From NCBI RefSeq assembly GCF_044324875.1, contig NZ_CP172185.1: a DNA stretch of 64,000 nt; one strand, written 5' to 3'. Below the pieces are notes generated by a model. The model saw nothing but the letters and a program-made list of their open reading frames with translations. It had not been told where the DNA came from and made no database searches. This DNA is from Escherichia coli. GTDB lineage: Bacteria > Pseudomonadota > Gammaproteobacteria > Enterobacterales > Enterobacteriaceae. Both the position numbers and the translations under genes were made by a program. This document shows, piece by piece, positions 21,424 through 59,890 of the stretch; positions within the stretch are counted from its first letter, which is position 1, and each line of letters begins with the position of its first letter.

Positions 21424-22656
21424 CATACATGTATTCCCGGTGAAAAAAGACAAAACCCCGCGCACCGGAAAGGTGGCGGGGGATTCACGGAGATAATATC
21501 TGTCTGAAATTGTTTTGAATCGATGGGATTGTTGCGTATTAACATGAAGGAGATCAGGACTTATCCGTTACTGGGTGATCTCCTTCCATGAAAATACGCC
21601 GTTATTGTTAAACAGCAGGCTGATTTCTCCGTAAAGGGGAAAATATTTATCGGCTGTATGATTATCAGGTGTGTCTGTGTTTACTGCTGTGAGTATTTTT
21701 TAGTGTATTGTGGGGGAGATGTCAGTGGGAGATATTAAATTTACGTTTATAATTATCTTACTTCTTCTGTGTGTTTTTTATAAGAGTGCACACGTAATGA
21801 TATCTGTTGATACCATGTGGTTAAGTGTTTCCCTTCCTGGTCATGCGTAATGATTAAATGCTTTTGTGACACCATTCTTCCGGTCTGAATATTTATCCCG
21901 TTCTTTTTTATTTGTGCAGTGATACTGTCGGAAGAGAATTCAGTAATGTGAGGTGTCCTGGTCAGGATAATATCTGCTGAGATATTATTAGTTGAGGGTG
22001 TTTTTACTGAGCAAAAGCTGGCTTTTAATTCCTGTACTGAAACACTGTCGCTCGTCCGGGGTTAACTGAAACTGGATGATGATGTAAAATGAAGGCTGTT
22101 TTTGTGTTTGTCGAAGAAGTGTTATTTTAATCCATTCTCATCATTGGCTGGCGATTATACAGAAGTATTTGAAGAAAAAATGGTGCATTTTATCTGTGTC
22201 AGCAGGGAAGAAGTATTTTATTGATGTATCAGTATTAAATGGTTTTTGTTATTTATAAAAATGTCATCCTGTCCATAGAATATTGTACTCAGCATTCAGT
22301 GCAGGAACTGTAGTCTTCTTTATTTTATTCTTCTTCAGGAGGGGGGTGATTCCTGAAGGCGTTATTCCCGGTGTTCTGTTTATGATTCTTCCCGGCAGGA
22401 AACCGGTATCTGCAATACCCGGGATGATGCTTTTTGTTCGTACGTGGTTGTGTAAAATTTGAATAGTGGATGTGCTCCGAAGGGAAGGAGGGGACACACA
22501 GATTCATTTTGTCTTTCTTCAGCAGCAAAATACACTGTGGTTATTATTTAACCATTAAATCAACAAAAATTTTTACCTCATATTGATTTGACTGCTATTT
22601 TTGCTATTAATAGCCAGAATTGCAGTGCTTTTATATCTGTGTATAGTGAGGTTACT

Positions 22657-24141
22657 ATGTCATTCGGTCAGCCTTGTGATGAGTTTCCCCTGAGTTCGCT
22701 GCCTCCACTCATTCGTGATGCCGTTATTGAAGCTCAGCAAATTACGCAGGCTCCCCTTGGGCTTGTGGCAGCGTCTGCCCTGGGCGCTGTTTCACTTGTC
22801 TGCCAGAATCTGATTGATGTCTGCAGACTGAATACACTGCGGGGGCCGGTCTCTCTTTTTTTCCTGACGCTTGCCGAGTCCGGAGAACGAAAAACCGCAG
22901 TGGACAAATTATTAATGAAGCCCCTGTACCAGCAGGAGATGCAGTTATATTCCAGATACAAAAGTGAACTGGCTGTCTGGAAAAACAAGGAAGAGCTTTT
23001 AAAGGCTCAGAAAAAAGCATTGTTGTCAAAACTGAATAAAGAACTCCGCAAAGGCGCGGATGAGTCAGAAACCCTCAGACAACTGGAAGTACTTCAGAAA
23101 AACAGTGCGGAAGAACCTGTGAGGTATAAATTCATTTTTAATGATGCCACGACTGCGGCAATTAAGAATCAGCTTTGTGGTAAATGGCGTTCAGTTGGTA
23201 TTATGTCAGATGAAGCCGGTATTATATTTGATGGATATACCCTGTCTGAGTTGCCTTTTATTAACAAAATGTGGGATGGCTCTGTATTGTCTGTGGACAG
23301 AAAGAATGAACCCGAACAGATGATTGAAAATGCCAGAATGACGTTATCCCTCATGGTGCAACCCGGTCTTTTTGACCGATATATGGAGCGAAAAGGTTCT
23401 GTTGCCAGGGACAGTGGTTTTCTTGCCCGTTGTCTTATCAGTAAACCTGCAACCACGCAGGGGAAACGCTTTATTAACGGAGCTGTGATTCCGGGAGGAT
23501 CATTAACGGCATTTCATGAACGATTAATGGAACTGGCCAGAGGCAGTATTGAAAAATCCAGTGAGGATGAACGGTATTGTCTGCATTTTTCGCCTGAAGC
23601 GCAAAAAATATTTATTGAGCACTATAATGTTCTGGAGCAGGATTTATCCCCTTCCGGACCCTTAAGCCCGTTTCGGGGACATGTTTCAAAAAAAACAGAA
23701 AACATTGCAAGAATTGCAGCGTTATTTCAGTATTTCAGCTATGGTGAAGGGAAAATCTCTGCCGATATCATGACGTCTGCTGTCGTAATAAGTTCGTGGT
23801 ACACAGATGAATATAAAAAATTATTTGCGTTACCTGATGAATCTGAACTGCAGCAGAAGGACGCCGAGGAGCTGTTCGACTGGCTCATTGAGGAGTGCCG
23901 CGGAGAATGCCCGCCCCGTGTCAGGAAAAATTATATTCTCCAGTGTGGCCCGGGCCGGTTCAGAAACAGGAAAAAACTGAACGCATTGCTGAACATTCTT
24001 GAATCTCAGTTCAGGCTTTCTGTCGTGCCGGAAGGAAAAACCATGTATGTTCTGCTTCCCCAGATAGCCAGTTTAAAGTTGTCTGATGTCTCTGGTATTT
24101 TTACCTCGGGTTATCACTACAATAAGCTGAGAGCGAAGTAA
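22657..24141 (+). CDS. DUF3987-like protein (YfjI family, primase-associated C-terminal domain type)
   Basis: 494 aa from the ATG with GTGAGG RBS; typical P4-like island gene. Confidence 0.65.
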   Translation: MSFGQPCDEFPLSSLPPLIRDAVIEAQQITQAPLGLVAASALGAVSLVCQNLIDVCRLNTLRGPVSLFFLTLAESGERKTAVDKLLMKPLYQQEMQLYSRYKSELAVWKNKEELLKAQKKALLSKLNKELRKGADESETLRQLEVLQKNSAEEPVRYKFIFNDATTAAIKNQLCGKWRSVGIMSDEAGIIFDGYTLSELPFINKMWDGSVLSVDRKNEPEQMIENARMTLSLMVQPGLFDRYMERKGSVARDSGFLARCLISKPATTQGKRFINGAVIPGGSLTAFHERLMELARGSIEKSSEDERYCLHFSPEAQKIFIEHYNVLEQDLSPSGPLSPFRGHVSKKTENIARIAALFQYFSYGEGKISADIMTSAVVISSWYTDEYKKLFALPDESELQQKDAEELFDWLIEECRGECPPRVRKNYILQCGPGRFRNRKKLNALLNILESQFRLSVVPEGKTMYVLLPQIASLKLSDVSGIFTSGYHYNKLRAK

Positions 24142-24462: not shown

Positions 24463-25071
24463 TCAGGTGCGCTTATCGTCAACCGTTGTGCGGTATGCCA
24501 GGAGCACGTACTGATCCATCAGATCCGTCAGTGCTGCGCTCTGCTTCTGACGGTTGATGATCCATTCCTCCAGCTCTTTTTCTGATTTCCGTTTCAGATT
24601 CTCCGTCCAGTCGTCAAGGCAGTTTCCGGTCATTAAATCAAGCCAGCAAAGCCAGACCAGTTTGAGGCGCAACTCCGTGCCACCAAACTGACGGAAGAGG
24701 CTGATCAGTTTATTTGCCAGCGAACGCTGCCTCAGACGTTCACATTCAGACAGGAGAATGCCTTCCAGCATCGGATGATGAACCAGCAGATGTTCACTGG
24801 TGCATAAATTCACTATCAGATCATCATCCAGGGGCGGCGTGGTCCGTTTGTCCGGACCATAAATCAGCCGGTGCAGACTCTGGGGTACGATGGCAATCTC
24901 CGGTTTTTCACCATTGAATGACACCCACCCGGGCGTCAGATTATGGAAGTAGTAGATATTCGGATGACACACGCCCCAGGATACGGCGTGCCGGGTGAAG
25001 CCGGTCAGCCATTTCTGGTAGCTTTCGTGGAGCAGCTCGTAACGGGTCTGATACTGTGGTTTCATTTTCAT
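24463..25071 (-). CDS. hypothetical protein downstream of the alpA-like gene
   Basis: 202 aa from the ATG with GAGG RBS; same strand as alpA. Confidence 0.5.
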   Translation of the reverse strand: MKMKPQYQTRYELLHESYQKWLTGFTRHAVSWGVCHPNIYYFHNLTPGWVSFNGEKPEIAIVPQSLHRLIYGPDKRTTPPLDDDLIVNLCTSEHLLVHHPMLEGILLSECERLRQRSLANKLISLFRQFGGTELRLKLVWLCWLDLMTGNCLDDWTENLKRKSEKELEEWIINRQKQSAALTDLMDQYVLLAYRTTVDDKRT

Positions 25072-25151
25072 ATTCCTCACGGGGGATAACAGGCAGCAGA
25101 ACGCCGCCGGCAGGCCGGAGACTGCGTCTGCTGCAGATGAACGGTTAAGAA

Positions 25152-25358
25152 TTACGGACGGGACTGTGCAATACGCGCCTGCAGCCAGGCTTCCACTTCG
25201 CTTTTCAGCCATCGGGAGCTGCGGCCCATTTTGATGGGCGCAGGAAAGTCACCATCCTTGATGAGTTTGTAAAACCACTTATCGGTCAGGCCGGTCAGTT
25301 GAGTGATAAATGCCATGTCGACCATCTGGTCATCCATCAGTGAAACTGGGGTGATCAT
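25152..25358 (-). CDS. AlpA-family phage/island transcriptional regulator (excisionase-like HTH)
   Basis: 68 aa from the ATG with GGAGG RBS; ...MAFITQLTGLTDKWFYKLIKDGDFPAPIKMGRSSRWLKSEVEAWL is the AlpA fold signature. Confidence 0.7.
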   Translation of the reverse strand: MITPVSLMDDQMVDMAFITQLTGLTDKWFYKLIKDGDFPAPIKMGRSSRWLKSEVEAWLQARIAQSRP

Positions 25359-26015
25359 GAGAATGTTCCTCCGGATGTTGTTAAACCAGCCGGTGTGGTC
25401 ATGAAAACAACGCACCACCTTCACCGGCATAACAACCGGGGAGAAACGTAAAAAATAATCGGGAATGTGACCGCCAGGAGATAAACGGGGAGGTTACGGT
25501 GGCTGAGCCGTACCGGTATGCCGGGTGGTTGTTACGAAACGATGCTTCCGCACGCGTGCGCGATAAAGAAGGGATGATTTTCGTGAGGAAGAGGGGAAAA
25601 CTGGCGTTCTGATAATTGCAGAGTTATTTACGGGGCGGTTACGATGGGGCAGACCGTGTCCGGTGGGCAGGCGACAGGTATCACCGATGGGATAAGACTG
25701 TCTGATTGGTATTATAAATATATAAGAGAGATCAAACACATGAGATCAAATACATGAGTTCATATATGTGAAATAAACACGGTGAGTGTGATCAGTGGGC
25801 ATGATGAGAACGCTGCAAAATGGCATCTGAATCGATCGCAGTTTGGCATTCGAATCGATCATGATTTGGCATCCATCTCCGATCACAGTTTGGCATCACA
25901 ATCGATCACGATTTGGCATGCTTCCGATCATTGATTGGCATCCTGCCAGTCACTCCGGGAATTAACTCTTTTCACCACAGTCTCCATTGCCGTGTTTAAA
26001 CCAGTGGAGACGTCA

Positions 26016-27581
26016 ATGTCCAGAAAGAGAAAATCCAGGAGCACTATGGAAACCTGTTTTAAGATCCTTCAGCTCAAGTTCGACAAGAAGCTGACTAACC
26101 GTTGTATCGGACTGACGTTACACATCAGCGCCTCAACCGTTTTTGAGGTTCTTGCCCGCTTCAAAGCCTCTTCTCTGTCATGGCCATTACCTGCTGATAT
26201 ATCCCATGACACGCTGGAGAAACTCATTTTTCCGCCCAAAGACACCTTTGCATCAGAGCTTGTAATGCCTGACATGTTGTACTTCGATACGGAAATGAGA
26301 AAACCAGGTGTGACGCGGCAACTGTTGTGGATGGAATACAAGGCACAGGCGGGTAACAAAGCGATGGGATACTCGCACTTCTGCCGTTGCTACCGGGAGT
26401 GGAAAAAAACGCGACGTCTCTCCATGCGCCAGGAGCATCGTGCCGGCGAAAAGCTTTTTATCGACTTCTGTGGTCCTACGGTTCCTGTTATTAATCCGGA
26501 CACCGGTGAGATACGCCGCGTGGCAATCTTCGTGGCCGTAATGGGGGCGTCCAACTATACCTACGTTGAAGCGTGCGAAGGTCAGGACATGATGTCATGG
26601 TTAAATGCCCACAGCCGTTGCCTGACCTTCCTGGGCGGCGTACCGAAGCTGCTCATCCCCGATAACCTCAGAAGCGCAGTGAAAAAGGCCGATCGATATG
26701 AGCCTGTCATCAACGACAGTTATCAGGCACTGGCTGAGCACTATGGCACGGTTATCATCCCGGCCCGACCACGCAAACCTAAAGATAAACCAAAAGCAGA
26801 AAACGGCGTCCTCATCGTTGAACGATGGCTTCTTGCCCGCATCCGTAATGAAACCTTCCACACGCTCAGGGCGCTGAATGCGCGCCTTAGGGAGTTACTG
26901 ACAGACATGAATAACCGGCCAATGAAGGGGTACGGCAATCAAACCCGTGCAGAACGCTTCCGCATACTGGATGCGCCAGCACTCTCTCCGCTGCCTCTGG
27001 CACCTTATGAATACACGGAATACAAAGCTGTGAAGGTTGGCCCTGACTACCACGTTGAATATGCCCGTCACTGGTACTCCGTTCCACACGAACTGGTCGG
27101 TCAGCGTCTGTCACTGAAGGCGGGGCAGTCGGTGGTACAGCTCTGGCACAAGGGGCAGTGTGTGGCGCAACATCCGCGCAGCACACATGAATATAAACAC
27201 ACAACCAATCCGCTTCACATGCCAGAGCGCCACCGGCAGCACGGGACATGGACACCGGAACGCCTGATCGAGCAGGGAAAACGTACGGGCCCGTCCACAG
27301 GCCGGGTGGTTGAATCCATGCTGAAGGCAAAACCCCATCCGGAACTGGCTTATCGTGCAGTTCTGGGGCTGCTGGCACTTCAGAAAAAATACGGCCCGGA
27401 ACGGCTGGAAAAGGCCTGTTACGTTGCCCTGCACTATAACGCCCCTGACAGACGCTTTATCGACAATCTGCTGCGTCACCATCGGGAGAACCTGGAGCTT
27501 CCATTATCCCGCCAGGGCGAACAACATCCGGCATATGCTTCAGAGCATGAAAACCTGCGTGGTCCGGGCTACTACCACTGA
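26016..27581 (+). CDS. IS21-family transposase IstA
   Basis: HTH N-terminus plus DDE domain; start placed at MSRKRKSRS. Confidence 0.85.
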   Translation: MSRKRKSRSTMETCFKILQLKFDKKLTNRCIGLTLHISASTVFEVLARFKASSLSWPLPADISHDTLEKLIFPPKDTFASELVMPDMLYFDTEMRKPGVTRQLLWMEYKAQAGNKAMGYSHFCRCYREWKKTRRLSMRQEHRAGEKLFIDFCGPTVPVINPDTGEIRRVAIFVAVMGASNYTYVEACEGQDMMSWLNAHSRCLTFLGGVPKLLIPDNLRSAVKKADRYEPVINDSYQALAEHYGTVIIPARPRKPKDKPKAENGVLIVERWLLARIRNETFHTLRALNARLRELLTDMNNRPMKGYGNQTRAERFRILDAPALSPLPLAPYEYTEYKAVKVGPDYHVEYARHWYSVPHELVGQRLSLKAGQSVVQLWHKGQCVAQHPRSTHEYKHTTNPLHMPERHRQHGTWTPERLIEQGKRTGPSTGRVVESMLKAKPHPELAYRAVLGLLALQKKYGPERLEKACYVALHYNAPDRRFIDNLLRHHRENLELPLSRQGEQHPAYASEHENLRGPGYYH

Positions 27582-27597
27582 CAGAAGGAACAACAGT

Positions 27598-28353
27598 ATG
27601 AGTGATAACCTGTTAAACAAACTGACCCAACTGAAACTCCCGGCGATGGCCGGGAGCCTGATACGGCAGCGGGAAACGCCTCAGACCTACGACGAACTGT
27701 CGTTCGAGGAAAGGCTGACGCTGCTGGTTGATGACGAGCTTCTGAGCAGGGAAAACAGCCGTGTGGCACGGTTGAGAAAAAATGCCGGCCTGAAATACCA
27801 GGCAACACCGGAAGGGCTGCGCTATCCGGCCTCAAGAGGTCTGCGGGCTGAACAGATGAGAGAACTGCTGAACGGCCACTACATAACCCACAGGAAAAAC
27901 CTGCTGATAACCGGTCCGACAGGATGTGGCAAGAGCTGGATAGCCAATGCGCTGGGCGAACAGGCATGTCGACAGAAACACAGCGTCCGGTACTGTAGAA
28001 CCGGGCGATTACTGGAACAACTGGCTCAGGGACGTGTTGATGGCAGCTGGCTGAAATATCTGAAACAGTTGCAAAAAATACAGGTTCTAATCCTGGACGA
28101 TCTGGGGCTGGAACAGTTAAGTAACGCCCAGTGTAATGACCTTCTGGAGCTCATAGAGGATCGTTACGGACAAAGCAGCACGATAGTGGTAAGCCAGTTC
28201 CCGGTAGATAAATGGCATGGTCTGATGGAGAACCCAACAACAGCAGATGCCATCCTGGACAGACTGGTACATAACTCACACCGAGTGGTCCTTCAGGGAG
28301 AGTCACTGAGGAAAAATCCCCCGGTAGTGGAAAGCAGCGAAAAAACGCGTTAA
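27598..28353 (+). CDS. IS21-family ATP-binding helper IstB
   Basis: Walker A GPTGCGKS, Walker B ILDDLG. Confidence 0.85.
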   Translation: MSDNLLNKLTQLKLPAMAGSLIRQRETPQTYDELSFEERLTLLVDDELLSRENSRVARLRKNAGLKYQATPEGLRYPASRGLRAEQMRELLNGHYITHRKNLLITGPTGCGKSWIANALGEQACRQKHSVRYCRTGRLLEQLAQGRVDGSWLKYLKQLQKIQVLILDDLGLEQLSNAQCNDLLELIEDRYGQSSTIVVSQFPVDKWHGLMENPTTADAILDRLVHNSHRVVLQGESLRKNPPVVESSEKTR

Positions 28354-29324
28354 AAAGCGGTAGAAAAAGTTAAGTTCCCGGTTGATCGAATGGATGCGAA
28401 TCGCTGATCGGACTTCGATGCCAATCCGTGATCGAATAGAGCGGAATACGCAAACGCAGTAGCAACAGACTGCGCTATCCCTGATAGCTGGCGTATAACC
28501 CGCGTATATAAAACGTATCTGCAATGTACGTGAACAGAGTGCATTAAGCATCCGTCTGAGCGGTAAACATATCCGACCTGGTGAGTGACAGTCTGAGAGA
28601 CCGGTTAAGTGGTGGCTCGGGAGTAATGAGTTTGGGGTGGGTACCAGAATGCCAGTCTGGCGGTATGCTGACAGTATCACGTTAATTGCAGCATAAAGTG
28701 ATGAGAGGCTAATGGAAGTTAAAACCAAAGCAGTTCCGTCGTTGTTCATCCCGGGAGACGCTGGAAAAAGTGATTTCCCACACGCGTTATAAACTTACCT
28801 CTGCGGAACTGGAAGCCTTCAACTCTGTGGTTGATCACTGGCTGGCAGAACTGACAATGAACAAGCTTTACGATCGTGTTCCCGCTTCAGTCTGGAAATA
28901 TGTCATCTGAGCGTTCGGTAATCACAACTGCATCGCGCCAGGTGTTATCCGCTTTGTGATTCTTATTGGCTCTTCTCAGGTTATTAAAAGCTGAATATGT
29001 TCCTGTTGTCGGGAACCAGGATAATACCGGGAACGTTAAGCGGTATAGCGACAACAAAGAATTCGAAATCAAAAGGGAATGGTGCCGGAGGCGTGGGCGG
29101 TAATGGGCTGATTTTCAGGTATTACCGGCTTACAGCGTGTGGTTGATATTGAGGGGCTGTGAGTTTCACGTATTTGTCAGAAACCCAGACGAGTTTTCCT
29201 GTATGGGACGAAATAAGGCAGCGGCAATACATGGAAAAATTTAATATGGTATGAAGGAGAACCTGTCGGTTACGCTTAATATAACCGGTACACTGTCAGC
29301 TCAGGGGATACATGAACCGTTATC

Positions 29325-29525
29325 TCACCAGCTACACAGTATATACACACTGACGCTGACAGTAGTCAGCAGGACCACAATAATCAGTGCCAGCAGTATG
29401 GTAACGATACGGTCTGTATTCCGGTAATAGCCGAAGGGGTCGACAGAACCACAATACGGGCAACACACAGTATTATGAGTAATCGCGTTTCCACAGTCCC
29501 AGCACTTCTTTTTGCGTATCACCAT
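29325..29525 (-). CDS. small zinc-ribbon membrane protein
   Basis: 66 aa; CWDCG...CCPYCG followed by a C-terminal TM helix; strong RBS GAGGAGGGAG. Confidence 0.6.
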   Translation of the reverse strand: MVIRKKKCWDCGNAITHNTVCCPYCGSVDPFGYYRNTDRIVTILLALIIVVLLTTVSVSVYILCSW

Positions 29526-29730
29526 AACTCCCTCCTCACAGCCTTACCCGTAACCGGTTTTTTTACATTAAAAAAACAACGCTGAAAATTCAACCGTCAG
29601 TCCGGAGACGACCGTTCGGGTTATCTCAGAGTGCCTGAGATATTGCCTGGTTGGAGATCACTTCAGGGACTCTGCGCATTTTTTACGGCGTGGTTAATCC
29701 GTATGAACGAAACCATACGGAGATTTAACC

Positions 29731-30300
29731 ATGACCTACAAATACAACCCCTTCTGGCAGCAACGTATTCGTGAGACGGTGCGGCACGCACTGGATGTTC
29801 ATCCCCGTCTGACGGCATTGCGGGTTGATCTGCGTCTCCCGGATGTACCGGCAGCAACGGACGCGGCTGTGATATCCCGCTTCATCAATGCCCTGAAAGC
29901 CCGAATCGACGCTTACCAGAAACGTAAGCATCGGGAAGGTAAACGCGTGCATTCCTCGACCCTGCATTACGCCTGGGCCCGGGAGTTCGGGGAGCTTAAA
30001 GGCAAAAAACACTATCACCTGCTGCTGCTGGTCAACCGGGATACCTGGTGTCGTGCCGGCGATTACCGCGCTCCGGGGTCACTGGCCGGAATGATTAAAC
30101 AGGCGTGGTGCAGTGCCCTGGGAGTGGATGTCGGGTGCCATGCCACGCTGGTGCATTTTCCGGCCTGGCCGGCGGTGTGGCTGGAACGCGATGATGACAC
30201 TGGCTTTCAGCAGGTGCTGGAACGTGCTGGCTATCTGGCGAAGGAGCATACCAAAGCTCGCGGCACCGGTGAGCGCAACTTTGGCTGCAGTCGTGGCTGA
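29731..30300 (+). CDS. hypothetical island protein (possibly YagK/YfjJ-like)
   Basis: 189 aa, ATG with GGAG RBS; family assignment is a weak recollection. Confidence 0.5.
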   Translation: MTYKYNPFWQQRIRETVRHALDVHPRLTALRVDLRLPDVPAATDAAVISRFINALKARIDAYQKRKHREGKRVHSSTLHYAWAREFGELKGKKHYHLLLLVNRDTWCRAGDYRAPGSLAGMIKQAWCSALGVDVGCHATLVHFPAWPAVWLERDDDTGFQQVLERAGYLAKEHTKARGTGERNFGCSRG

Positions 30301-30460
30301 GCCCGACAGACGACTTATCTGACCTTAGTGTGATGACGCGTTCACAGCGACCACACTGATTTTCCCTTCTGAGACTGAACTGAAAACCGCTATTCACACC
30401 TGACCACGCTGCCCGTACCGGGACGGCTGTTGCCTACGTGTCGTCTGGCGGCTGAGGAAT

Positions 30461-30850
30461 ATGACGATGTACGCAAAATCCTTTCTCGCACTTGATGGCA
30501 ACGGGCGTCTGACTGGTGCCCGTACCGCACAGACTGCACCTTACGATCGCTACACTTGCCACCTTTGCGGCAGTGCACTCAGATACCACCCGCAATACGA
30601 CACTGAACGTCCCTGGTTTGAACACACTGACGACGGGCTGACTAAGCACGGTCATGAGTGCCCTTATGTCAGACCGGAACGCAGGGAGGTACGCTTGATT
30701 AAGCGTCTGCAGCAATTCGTACCGGATGCCTTACCCGTGGTGCGTAAAGCCAGCTGGCACTGCAGACAATGTCACCACGATTATTATGGGGAGCGGTACT
30801 GCACTCACTGCCATACAGGGCACTTCAGTGAGGAGGGAGTGGCTGAATGA
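30461..30850 (+). CDS. Cys/His-rich putative zinc-binding protein, paralog 1
   Basis: 129 aa; CHLCG...WFEH...HECPY...WHCRQCHHDYYGERYCTHCHTG; GAGG RBS. Confidence 0.65.
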   Translation: MTMYAKSFLALDGNGRLTGARTAQTAPYDRYTCHLCGSALRYHPQYDTERPWFEHTDDGLTKHGHECPYVRPERREVRLIKRLQQFVPDALPVVRKASWHCRQCHHDYYGERYCTHCHTGHFSEEGVAE

Positions 30851-31272
30851 ACGGTATAAAAACGGGGCTGGGGATCACGCCGGGTGAACACATTATCAGT
30901 GCGGCCTCAGCCCTTAGCAGAAATATCAGGCATTGTTTCTGCCTTTCCTGTCGTGGTCGGTTGATTTTGCAGACAGATGCTCAGGGGGCGTGGTTTGAGC
31001 ACGATTTACATGCCCTGAGCGCGCAACAGAAGGCGGCCTGCGTGGTGCTGAATCCGGAAAAGTCCCACCCTTACATTGAGGATATGGCGATGTTTCTATC
31101 GCCATTACCGGTCGTGCTGGAGTGGCATTGTGTGATGTGCGGGCAGCATTTTCCCGGGAAAAAGTTCTGCGAAGCCTGTGGCACGGGGATCTATTCCAGA
31201 GCAACATGTACGAAGTCTGTTTACAGCTACCAGCCAGACTTGTTTCAGGACTGCGGAGGTGCGAGTACTTAA
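30847..31272 (+). CDS. Cys/His-rich putative zinc-binding protein, paralog 2 (translationally coupled)
   Basis: 141 aa; CFCLSCRG...WFEH...WHCVMCGQHFPGKKFCEACGTG; ATGA overlap with the preceding stop; GGAGGGAG RBS. Confidence 0.65.
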   Translation: MNGIKTGLGITPGEHIISAASALSRNIRHCFCLSCRGRLILQTDAQGAWFEHDLHALSAQQKAACVVLNPEKSHPYIEDMAMFLSPLPVVLEWHCVMCGQHFPGKKFCEACGTGIYSRATCTKSVYSYQPDLFQDCGGAST

Positions 31273-33725
<2,453 letters not shown>

Positions 33726-58311: not shown

Positions 58312-59496
58312 TTAACTTTCCCGGCTGGAGAGTGAATCAATGTAATCAGCGTACCATTGCATCATTTCACGGCGGCCATCGAGATACAGGGCATGATTAT
58401 AGGTACCCCTGATGGAATTTTTATCCACATGAGCTAACTGCATTTCAATCCAGGCGGAATTAAAGCCTTGTTCATGCAGAATTGTACTCATGGTGTGTCT
58501 GAAACCGTGCCCTGTGAGTCTTCCCTTATATCCAAGTAATTCAATTACTTGGTTAATGCTTTCCTTACTAATTGGTTTGCGGGGATCATTTCTACCGATA
58601 AAGACTAGGGGATGATGTTTTGAGATTGGTTCAAGCTGCTTAAATAGCATAATGACCTGCTCAGAGAGCGGCACAATATGAGGTCGCTTCATCTTCATTA
58701 CTTCTGCCGGGATCTCCCACAATTTTGTCTCAAAATCGATATCTTCCCAGCGTGCAAAACGCAGTTCTTGTGTTCGTACGCCGGTTAACATAATGATCTG
58801 AGTAGCTGTCTTAGTGATTATACTTCCGGTATAACCCGCCAGATCGTTGAGGAAGTGGGGAAGTTCATTAGCAGTAAGAAAGGGAAAATGTACTTTTTTC
58901 GGTGTAGCTAAAGCACTGGCAAGATCGGGGGCTGGGTTATAGTCTGCCCGGCCAGTAACAATTGCATAGCGGAACACCTCACCACAGCGCTGGCGGACCT
59001 TGCGCATTTTCTCCAGAGCTCCACGTTTTTCCATTTTACGCAGTGCTTCCAGTAACTCCATTGGTTTGATTTCGGCAATAGGGCGCTTGCCAATGTAGGG
59101 AAAAATGTCTTTTTCAAAGGTATCAATGATTTCATCACGATAGCGTAATGACCACCGATCGGCTTTTGACTGGTGCCATTCGCGAGCAATAGCCTCGAAC
59201 GTATTTTGCAGACTCATTTGCTGCGCGATTTTTTCTTCCTTTTTTGCCTCCCCTGGATCGCCTCCAGCAGCGAGGAGTTTCCTGGCTTCACTGCGTTTCT
59301 CGCGAGCATCGGCTAGCGTTACATCGGGGTATACGCCAATAGAAAGCATCTTTTCTTTACCAGCAAAGCGGTACTTCATGCGCCAGTATTTAGAACCATT
59401 AGTGTTAATCAGTAGATACATACCGCCGCCATCAGCAAGCTTATAGGGTTTGTCTTTGGGTTTTGCGGTTTTCACTTTGATATCGGTTAATGCCAT
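58312..59496 (-). CDS. P4-type tyrosine integrase
   Basis: 394 aa; N-terminus MALTDIKVKTAKPKDKPYKLADGGGMYLLI; catalytic R...H..R...Y region; adjacent to the tRNA. Confidence 0.9.
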   Translation of the reverse strand: MALTDIKVKTAKPKDKPYKLADGGGMYLLINTNGSKYWRMKYRFAGKEKMLSIGVYPDVTLADAREKRSEARKLLAAGGDPGEAKKEEKIAQQMSLQNTFEAIAREWHQSKADRWSLRYRDEIIDTFEKDIFPYIGKRPIAEIKPMELLEALRKMEKRGALEKMRKVRQRCGEVFRYAIVTGRADYNPAPDLASALATPKKVHFPFLTANELPHFLNDLAGYTGSIITKTATQIIMLTGVRTQELRFARWEDIDFETKLWEIPAEVMKMKRPHIVPLSEQVIMLFKQLEPISKHHPLVFIGRNDPRKPISKESINQVIELLGYKGRLTGHGFRHTMSTILHEQGFNSAWIEMQLAHVDKNSIRGTYNHALYLDGRREMMQWYADYIDSLSSRES

Positions 59497-59780: not shown

Positions 59781-59819
59781 TCAGAAGAGGTAAACTGGCG
59801 GAAGATCACAGGAGTCGAA
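59781..59819. repeat. island attachment-site repeat, selC-proximal copy (overlaps the 3' end of selC)
   Basis: direct repeat of 8348-8386. Confidence 0.7.
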
Positions 59820-59890
59820 CCTGCCCGGGACCGCTGGCGGCCCCAACTGGATTTGAAGTCCAGCCGCCTCACCGGAGACGACGATCTTCC
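59796..59890 (-). tRNA. selC: tRNA-Sec (selenocysteine, UCA anticodon)
   Basis: rc of 59796-59890 reads GGAAGATCGTCGTCTCCGGTGAGGCGGCTGGACTTCAAATCCAGTTGGGGCCGCCAGCGGTCCCGGGCAGGTTCGACTCCTGTGATCTTCCGCCA, the E. coli selC sequence (95 nt). Confidence 0.95.

Follow-up and report, generated by a model that had tools for sequence, protein, structure and literature searches.

A selC-island backbone module of Escherichia coli combining a predicted HUH endonuclease with tandem zinc-ribbon paralogs

Introduction

Do the four short genes at positions 29,325 to 31,272 of a 64,000-nucleotide stretch of Escherichia coli contig NZ_CP172185.1 (assembly GCF_044324875.1; the whole stretch is referred to as the window) belong together, and what would they do? 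On the minus strand lies an open reading frame (ORF) for a small membrane zinc-ribbon protein of 66 amino acids (29325-29525). It is followed on the plus strand by a 189-amino-acid gene of the YagK/YfjJ, or 'inovirus Gp2', family (29731-30300) and by two zinc-protein genes, denoted znA (30467-30850, 127 amino acids) and znB (30847-31272, 141 amino acids), the second being a paralog of the first. A sequence-only reading had described these genes as an unassignable, compact unit made of the 66-amino-acid gene and a three-gene operon. Database searches showed that the genes can be assigned, as Pfam PF11726, PF25165 and PF11682 were matched and RefSeq labels the products 'inovirus Gp2 family protein', 'putative zinc ribbon protein' (twice) and 'hypothetical protein'. 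Neither the sequences nor the families are new to the databases, and the name given there already implies the HUH affinity. In the literature on YfjJ, YagK, DUF7828, DUF3279, 'putative zinc ribbon protein' and Ybl85, we found annotation mentions only, and no functional study of the zinc-ribbon proteins was found. We also found no description of an architecture consisting of an active HUH protein, ZnA, ZnB and a dead HUH paralog, of a CoiA_N-like DUF7828 finger, or of the conserved leader of znA. Here we present the cluster, with considerable confidence, as part of a conserved mobile-element backbone module that contains a probably active HUH endonuclease.

Results

The 189-amino-acid protein matched the Pfam family YagK_YfjJ_C with an E-value of 1e-45 and REP_ORF2-G2P weakly. 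Its predicted fold is of the Rep-type alpha/beta kind and resembles HUH nucleases; no sequence similarity to solved structures was detectable. An alignment was made of the protein, K-12 YfjJ and YagK, and orthologs of ten genera. A motif I-like strand was read as LRVDLRLP (residues 30-37), the HUH motif as H94-Y95-H96 (30010-30018) followed by LLLLV, and the tyrosine motif as Y168-L-A-K171 (30232-30243). In the structure model, the HUH motif is situated in the strand of residues 93-102 and the tyrosine motif at the end of the helix of residues 156-170. All putatively active members of the alignment keep motif I, HUH and Y-x-x-K. The tyrosine motif is conserved as Y(L/M)(A/T)K across all putatively active subfamilies, and the HUH motif is kept in Gp2(a), YfjJ, YagK and two other subfamilies, being lost only in a paralog found downstream of znB at other loci. 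Because these three motifs are conserved, we treat the protein as a predicted single-tyrosine HUH endonuclease, which would nick DNA.

K-12 YfjJ (of CP4-57) and YagK (of CP4-6) share the Pfam family with the 189-amino-acid protein at 36-39% identity and have the same HUH and Y-x-x-K motifs. They are placed next to alpA and yfjI in islands integrated at a tRNA or tmRNA gene, upstream of variable or defense cargo, although no zinc-ribbon genes or dead paralog stand behind the K-12 copies. The comparison with the K-12 proteins gives a family and not a mechanism. The inovirus setting suggested by the Gp2 name, with genes for single-stranded-DNA-binding, coat and Zot-type assembly proteins, was not found around the gene, whose context is instead the backbone of a selC island of ~52 kb. 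The sole 'phage' match to the Gp2 gene is an unverified, low-coverage contig of 4.5 kb (L030, OR844780.1), labeled 'UNVERIFIED_ORG' and originating from a phage preparation on E. coli O111, in which positions 265-831 hold a 94% identical gene. This contig is probably host or transduced island DNA, not a phage genome.

ZnA and ZnB were 32% identical over 84 amino acids in BLASTP (E 1e-11), and both matched Pfam DUF7828 (E 9e-31 for ZnA and 7e-22 for ZnB) and Zn_ribbon_11 (E 1e-8 and 2e-16, respectively), in agreement with the earlier claim of tandem zinc-binding paralogs. In ZnA, numbered for the 129-residue ORF, the ligands are C33, C36, H55 and C67 in DUF7828 and C101, C104, C114 and C117 in Zn_ribbon_11. 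Those of ZnB are C32, C35, H52 and C65 together with C95, C98, C108 and C111, and they are invariant or nearly so in 41 sequences. The pattern conserved in the 41-sequence alignment is C-x2-C ... (W)FEH ... C, then W-x-C-x2-C ... C-x2-C-x-x-G. The motif architecture that the sequence-only reading saw in both proteins is real and far beyond chance, with the correction that the fourth ligand of the first site, a cysteine, had been overlooked. Each protein is predicted to hold two metal sites, a CCHC finger and a C4 ribbon, which would bind zinc. The AlphaFold 2 model of ZnB (confidence score, pLDDT, 87) consists of two small beta-rich zinc modules with a helix between them.

ZnA is 65-77% identical to ZnA of other genera, as against 32% to the adjoining ZnB, so the duplication is ancient as judged from these identities. 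The zinc family is small and essentially limited to Enterobacterales: it comprises 340 clusters at 90% identity, and clustering of 1.84 billion proteins at 50% identity leaves no more than 106 representatives of it. No relatives of the zinc proteins were found in sequenced phages.

DUF7828 has the same C-x2-C ... aromatic-F-x-H ... C arrangement as the N-terminal zinc finger of CoiA (CoiA_N, PF25164). CoiA is a PD-(D/E)XK nuclease that resolves transformation D-loops and has a small N-terminal zinc finger (bioRxiv 10.1101/2024.02.06.579203). Weak CoiA_N matches were obtained for 9 of the 41 family members at E ≤ 0.1 (best E 1.3e-3, none ≤ 0.001), and for ZnA and ZnB of the window the domain was unlisted even at E ≤ 10. 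One homolog is automatically annotated as 'competence protein'. In contrast with CoiA and its PD-(D/E)XK nuclease domain, ZnA and ZnB, with 127-141 amino acids, are fully covered by the two zinc domains and end in the C4 ribbon; since the nuclease domain is absent, they are not members of CoiA. The CoiA_N-like finger is a modest hint that the zinc proteins may have a nucleic-acid-related role.

Other domain arrangements occur in the family. The protein P0159 (238 amino acids) is a natural fusion of two DUF7828 domains and a ribbon. At a Salmonella locus (L155, 4972-5701), a DUF7828-only protein comes after a divergent full-length member and shows an 'HFMH' motif like the HFAH of CoiA. An apparent Gp2-DUF7828 fusion of 279 amino acids (P0235) was considered as Rosetta-stone evidence and set aside, because its junction runs from the Gp2 end into the interior of a zinc protein, with loss of C-x2-C, and it is therefore a deletion product. 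Larger proteins that matched the C-terminal ribbon (P0197, P0204 and others) contain generic repeated zinc ribbons and were uninformative on function.

All four genes are under purifying selection: measured against their counterparts in an O145:H28 strain, the ratios of nonsynonymous to synonymous changes (pN/pS) are 0.16-0.48. A Shine-Dalgarno (SD) sequence is readable upstream of each, as had been claimed: GGAGGGAG for the 66-amino-acid ORF on the minus strand, GGAG for the 189-amino-acid ORF, GAGGAA for znA and GGAGGGAG for znB. The ORF list starts znA at ATG 30461 (30461-30850, 129 amino acids), but RefSeq and all orthologs start it at ATG 30467 (MYAKS..., 127 amino acids), nine nucleotides after its SD, and the latter is most likely the true start. 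The ATG of znB overlaps the TGA of znA as ATGA, just as the sequence-only reading had it. Homology searches gave no sign that the genes are fragments of a larger known gene, and Gp2-znA-znB was found to be a conserved unit. Proteins 100% identical to cluster members occur in many genomes.

To place this unit among its relatives, we compared the window with 8 distinct E. coli, Citrobacter and Klebsiella loci and with 15 loci from other genera, among them Salmonella diarizonae, Mixta, Trabulsiella, Serratia, Superficieibacter, Tenebrionibacter, Siccibacter, Leclercia, Yokenella and Erwinia. The comparison loci were annotated with locally built profiles. Each zinc gene with sufficient upstream sequence sits after an HUH gene, which is the outcome of the neighborhood check on co-occurrence that had been proposed earlier. 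At least three HUH subfamilies are found at zinc loci: the type of the window, a type with HHYHAH and YMTK, and a type with HIH and YLAK. Where the flanks are long enough, a DUF3987 helicase gene is also close by. The HUH and zinc genes are always accompanied by alpA and by a gene for a protein of ~200 amino acids without family match (p200). Where the set is complete, the genes most often run from active HUH through alpA, a short ribbon-only ORF, znA and znB to a dead HUH paralog; the overlap of znA with znB is seen in every genus. The ribbon-only ORF (~44 amino acids, Zn_ribbon_11-like) was seen between alpA and znA at L018 9722-9856, L019 9584-9865, L020 9730-9867 and L025 9732-9866; its reading frame differs from that of alpA, whose end it partly overlaps, and the window has no such ORF.

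In 3769 of 5426 complete E. coli genomes (about 70%), we found DNA related to znA-znB, almost always on the chromosome; the median number of places in a genome is 2 and the maximum 7. It was also found in more than 12 other enterobacterial genera. Such a common, multi-copy distribution is typical of core genes of mobile elements.

The paralog after znB lacks both the HUH and the tyrosine motifs. Many genera have it, as do E. coli islands other than that of the window (L019 10909-11457; L018 10839-11474; L151 7285-7851; a fragment at L029 14311-14610). The O145 strain and two other E. coli islands keep it, or fragments of it, directly after znB, and splits or truncations of this paralog are frequent in E. 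coli. In the window, similarity to genomes free of IS100 stops at 31311, 40 bp past the znB stop, and these relatives carry a YagK/YfjJ fragment or McrBC at the position of IS100. Compared with them, the window copy has lost the dead HUH paralog and the cargo junction to IS100. The operon that seemed to end in the zinc paralogs is thus one from which the paralog found elsewhere, a part of the ancestral unit, has been cut off. Cargo downstream of the module varies, with McrBC, a Dpd cluster, a methyltransferase, an OLD-family nuclease or CdiBA at the other loci, and IS100 and sugar-utilization genes in the window. The position directly after the HUH and zinc genes behaves like a hotspot for cargo rich in defense genes (L004 8651-16390, L028 14946-18282, L153 4926-6570, L154 5106-6570).

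Two non-coding elements in the unit are conserved. A leader of ~70 nucleotides (30384-30454, plus strand) lies directly 5' of znA and was delimited with nhmmer and alignment. Exactly one copy was found per znA locus, always 5' of znA (nhmmer, E 1e-5 to 1e-22), in more than 12 genera, and it is better conserved than the coding sequence. The predicted fold consists of nested hairpins whose 3' arm abuts the SD. One-sided changes mostly retain G-U pairs on the plus strand, but the observed number of compensatory pairs was reached by 32 of 500 shuffles and is unconvincing as a sign of covariation. For both this leader and the second element, Rfam 15 gave no match at E ≤ 1 within 28300-31400. When metagenomes were scanned with a degenerate 14-base core of the leader, most matches were due to chance, and the real element was at 4 of 120 loci among the matches listed.

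The znA leader travels with znA-znB even behind another HUH subfamily. We had considered it as a nick site of the HUH protein, but unrelated HUH subfamilies replace one another upstream of a nearly invariant leader, which makes a nickase origin unlikely. The leader looks like a znA-specific control element, and either a regulatory RNA or an operator is a candidate. Of the three-gene operon proposed earlier, the conservation of Gp2-znA-znB stands, but znA-znB, having its own leader, may be a transcription unit separate from the 189-amino-acid gene.

The second element lies 5' of the HUH gene (29682-29722, plus strand) and was recognized by aligning the upstream regions of 10 loci. It comprises a T-run and a constant core, TATGAACGA(A/T)AACC, inside a stem. 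The stem in the window is formed by CCGTATG (29699-29705) and CATACGG (29714-29720), with the 3' arm overlapping the SD GGAG (29719-29722), and in other genera it is CCGGT/ACCGG with the core retained. The upstream ATG of the element lies in frame at some loci and out of frame at others, so the conservation is not that of a coding sequence. The element is a candidate translational operator or nick-site hairpin.

The 66-amino-acid protein has a C-x2-C-x10-C-x2-C ribbon, a conserved GYYRNTDR motif and a C-terminal transmembrane helix, according to the alignment of its family. Its gene is transcribed divergently from the HUH gene, has a pN/pS of 0.21, and its region is present in 3519 genomes. 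The family has 73 clusters, nearly all from E. coli and Shigella, with single Salmonella and Klebsiella records. The gene is absent from all non-E. coli loci examined and from E. coli islands in which 90-95% identical znA-znB follow a different HUH gene. The view that it completes a four-gene unit is therefore given up; by its distribution, it is a real but lineage-specific neighbor and not a partner of the HUH and zinc genes.

The cluster is conserved backbone, not cargo, of a selC genomic island of the CP4-57/SRL type, which is bounded by tRNA-SeC (59796-59890) and a P4-type integrase (58312-59496). Backbone genes of the island are those for YfjI/DUF3987, an AlpA-like helix-turn-helix protein, an hha-like ORF, a YfjP-like GTPase, Ag43, DUF932, an antirestriction protein, RadC and CbtA/YeeU. 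The YfjI/DUF3987 gene (22588-24141, plus strand) encodes a predicted DNA helicase of 517 amino acids (PHROG 2373 'DNA helicase', E 3e-82); it is intact in the window and annotated as frameshifted in avian pathogenic E. coli BEN2908 and the O145 strain, and in K-12 yfjI adjoins yfjJ. The p200 gene of the window is at 24463-25212 on the minus strand, with family members also at L009 6466-7059 and L028 10008-10610, and no Pfam, NCBIfam or PHROG match was obtained for the family. The AlpA/excisionase-like gene was listed as an ORF at 25152-25430 on the minus strand, of which the real gene covers ~68 amino acids. A similar order was described for the Shigella SRL island, with orf38 (no similarity), the YfjJ-like orf39, Hha and Vis/AlpA (PMC6980539).

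Two IS21-family insertion sequence (IS) elements flank the cluster, as had been noted, and the 40-bp distance between the znB stop and IS100 was also confirmed. IS100 (31312-33250, right end approximate, minus strand) encodes IstB (31378-32160) and IstA (32157-33179). The second element (25935-28353, plus strand; IstA/IstB 26016-28353) has the alpA-like gene on one side and the hha-like ORF on the other. The BEN2908 chromosome, to which the cluster region is otherwise 100% identical, lacks this element, so the window stems from a different strain. A composite IS21 transposon was rejected as an explanation, because the flanking elements are different members of the IS21 family, the upstream one is missing from BEN2908, and relatives carry the unit without either. 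The IS elements are incidental, and the compact entity that they seemed to delimit is instead selC island backbone. Between them, the earlier reading had missed a truncated hha/ymoA-like ORF (28770-28910, plus strand, 46-49 amino acids), which matches the C-terminal two thirds of Hha and is labeled in RefSeq as Hha/YmoA family protein.

Discussion

What, then, might the module do? We tentatively propose, at somewhat below an even chance, that it is a core DNA-processing module for the excised island, in which the HUH protein would nick DNA for rolling-circle replication or mobilization and the zinc pair would have an accessory or regulatory part. Excision stimulated by AlpA would come first, and the 189-amino-acid HUH endonuclease would then nick a specific site in the circular island. 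Assisted by YfjI, the DUF3987 helicase of the island, or by a helicase of the host, it could start rolling-circle-type replication or single-strand transfer. ZnA and ZnB, probably translationally coupled, would serve as accessory or regulatory factors of island DNA processing, and they would probably contact each other in a hetero-oligomer, probably together with the dead HUH paralog. The conserved leader of znA suggests that znA-znB may be controlled separately from the HUH gene and possibly auto-regulated.

This proposal of a core module draws on the fixed position of the genes relative to alpA whatever the cargo, on their multi-copy distribution and on the retention of catalytic motifs in three HUH subfamilies. 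It is also consistent with the nearby YfjI/DUF3987 helicase and with the integrase and tRNA-SeC at the island end. On the side of the zinc proteins, it draws on the conserved CCHC and C4 ligands, the weak CoiA_N matches, the overlap of znA with znB across genera and the fusion protein P0159, and for all the genes on purifying selection. A further argument comes from Pseudomonas, where a Gp2-like protein is among the likely core genes of intY/alpA islands with defense cargo (bioRxiv 10.1101/2024.08.29.610337).

Several observations weigh against it. No origin or nick site was identified, and a repeat scan revealed no striking hairpin or iteron; both conserved leaders could be purely translational or transcriptional controls. 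A fold search with the whole ZnB model returned nothing informative, and the isoelectric points of ZnA and ZnB are near neutral (7.0-7.7), which is atypical of DNA binders. In E. coli, znA-znB at 90-95% identity are found behind unrelated HUH subfamilies, which argues against a tightly co-evolved protein pair. HUH genes often occur without zinc genes, as with K-12 yfjJ and yagK and in Rouxiella and Pectobacterium, so the zinc proteins are not obligatory cofactors, and znA or znB is sometimes single. As far as gene order can tell, the zinc genes are dependent on an HUH context and the HUH genes are not dependent on zinc genes.

The independence of the zinc genes from the HUH subfamily would also fit a different role, in which ZnA and ZnB are zinc-finger transcription factors like Ogr of P2 and Delta of P4 that activate island, cargo or helper-phage genes or regulate excision with AlpA, and the HUH gene is a mere neighbor. 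We regard this as unlikely. Small two-zinc proteins adjoin alpA in most genera, znA-znB lie directly upstream of variable cargo, and their own highly conserved leader or operator suggests autoregulation. Ogr and Delta, too, are small and zinc-binding and come from integrative elements that have a P4-type integrase, and Delta is a tandem duplication. The zinc family also matched the profile of RPB9, a two-ribbon RNA polymerase subunit, but this match is weak (E 0.008) and borderline, and it may mirror cysteine spacing alone. Unlike Ogr and Delta, ZnA and ZnB have no copy in sequenced phages and no P2/P4-type genes nearby, and neither the window proteins nor the 41 relatives matched Ogr_Delta or another transcription-factor family of Pfam. 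Moreover, the zinc genes were never without an upstream HUH gene in the loci examined.

The variable cargo next to the module raises the further idea that HUH, ZnA and ZnB, with or without the dead HUH paralog, form an anti-phage, anti-plasmid or anti-defense system that, for example, nicks incoming single-stranded or rolling-circle DNA, and that they are the first cargo item and not core. A nuclease with zinc-ribbon sensor proteins is a common defense design, the module is at the edge of a hotspot with McrBC, Dpd, OLD-family nucleases and methyltransferases, and in K-12 the defense systems AbpAB and RnlAB come after yfjJ. However, a search of the cluster proteins against PADLOC-DB v2 gave only one insignificant hit, ZnB to PDC-S64 over the ribbon motif (E 0.014). 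Across genera, the module keeps its place relative to alpA and p200 regardless of cargo, genomes carry several copies, and a Gp2-like gene is a likely core gene in an independent island family, while defense systems are normally patchy and not near-universal within an element family. We therefore think a defense role improbable. Finally, the island is heavily disrupted by IS elements, the dead HUH paralog has been lost from it and is often split or truncated elsewhere in E. coli, and one might take the cluster for decaying, functionless remnants of an ancestral element. That is very hard to reconcile with four intact ORFs at pN/pS of 0.16-0.48, with catalytic motifs and metal ligands kept across genera and with conserved leaders, and the population data speak against it too; we give it hardly any credence.

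Known systems offer partial parallels to the proposed core DNA-processing module. Rolling-circle initiators such as RepB of pMV158, NS1 of parvoviruses, Rep of CRESS-DNA viruses, ORF119 of SIRV1 and, by name, gpII of filamentous phages serve plasmids or viruses, in contrast with the large chromosomal island here, where the helicase is a separate DUF3987 protein and the zinc proteins and dead paralog have no counterpart in those systems. RepSA of pSAM2 and the relaxase NicK of ICEBs1 belong to integrated elements whose nickase or initiator acts on the excised circle. Both elements are conjugative, and their initiators are from other families than the 189-amino-acid protein; the sole link that we found to systems of this type was an insignificant RepSA match (E 0.09). 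In the IS91 family and in Helitron/Helraiser, a two-tyrosine enzyme with a helicase bears the zinc motifs fused at its own N-terminus, whereas in the window the enzyme has one tyrosine, the zinc modules are separate, duplicated proteins, and transposon ends are lacking.

A bolder version of the proposal, which we offer as speculation and consider rather unlikely, is that the active HUH protein, ZnA/ZnB and the dead HUH paralog would form an unrecognized multi-subunit initiation complex that, with the DUF3987 helicase, replicates or mobilizes the excised circle in the most frequent family of enterobacterial pathogenicity and defense islands, with the znA leader as an autoregulatory switch. If true, it would explain the persistence after excision, and the spread, of islands that are neither conjugative nor phage-like.

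The window copy itself is more modest, as its genes are catalogued, its set is truncated by IS100 and nothing in it is unique to the strain. The cluster nevertheless belongs to the commonest family of E. coli genomic islands, and islands of the CP4-57, SRL, AGI-3 and many tRNA-linked pathogenicity or defense types occur in most E. coli genomes. For the question of how such islands replicate or transfer after excision, the set of a conserved, probably active HUH nickase, a helicase, lineage-specific zinc proteins and a dead paralog provides a testable handle. For two Pfam families of unknown function, carried by about 70% of complete E. coli genomes, it also provides a working hypothesis.

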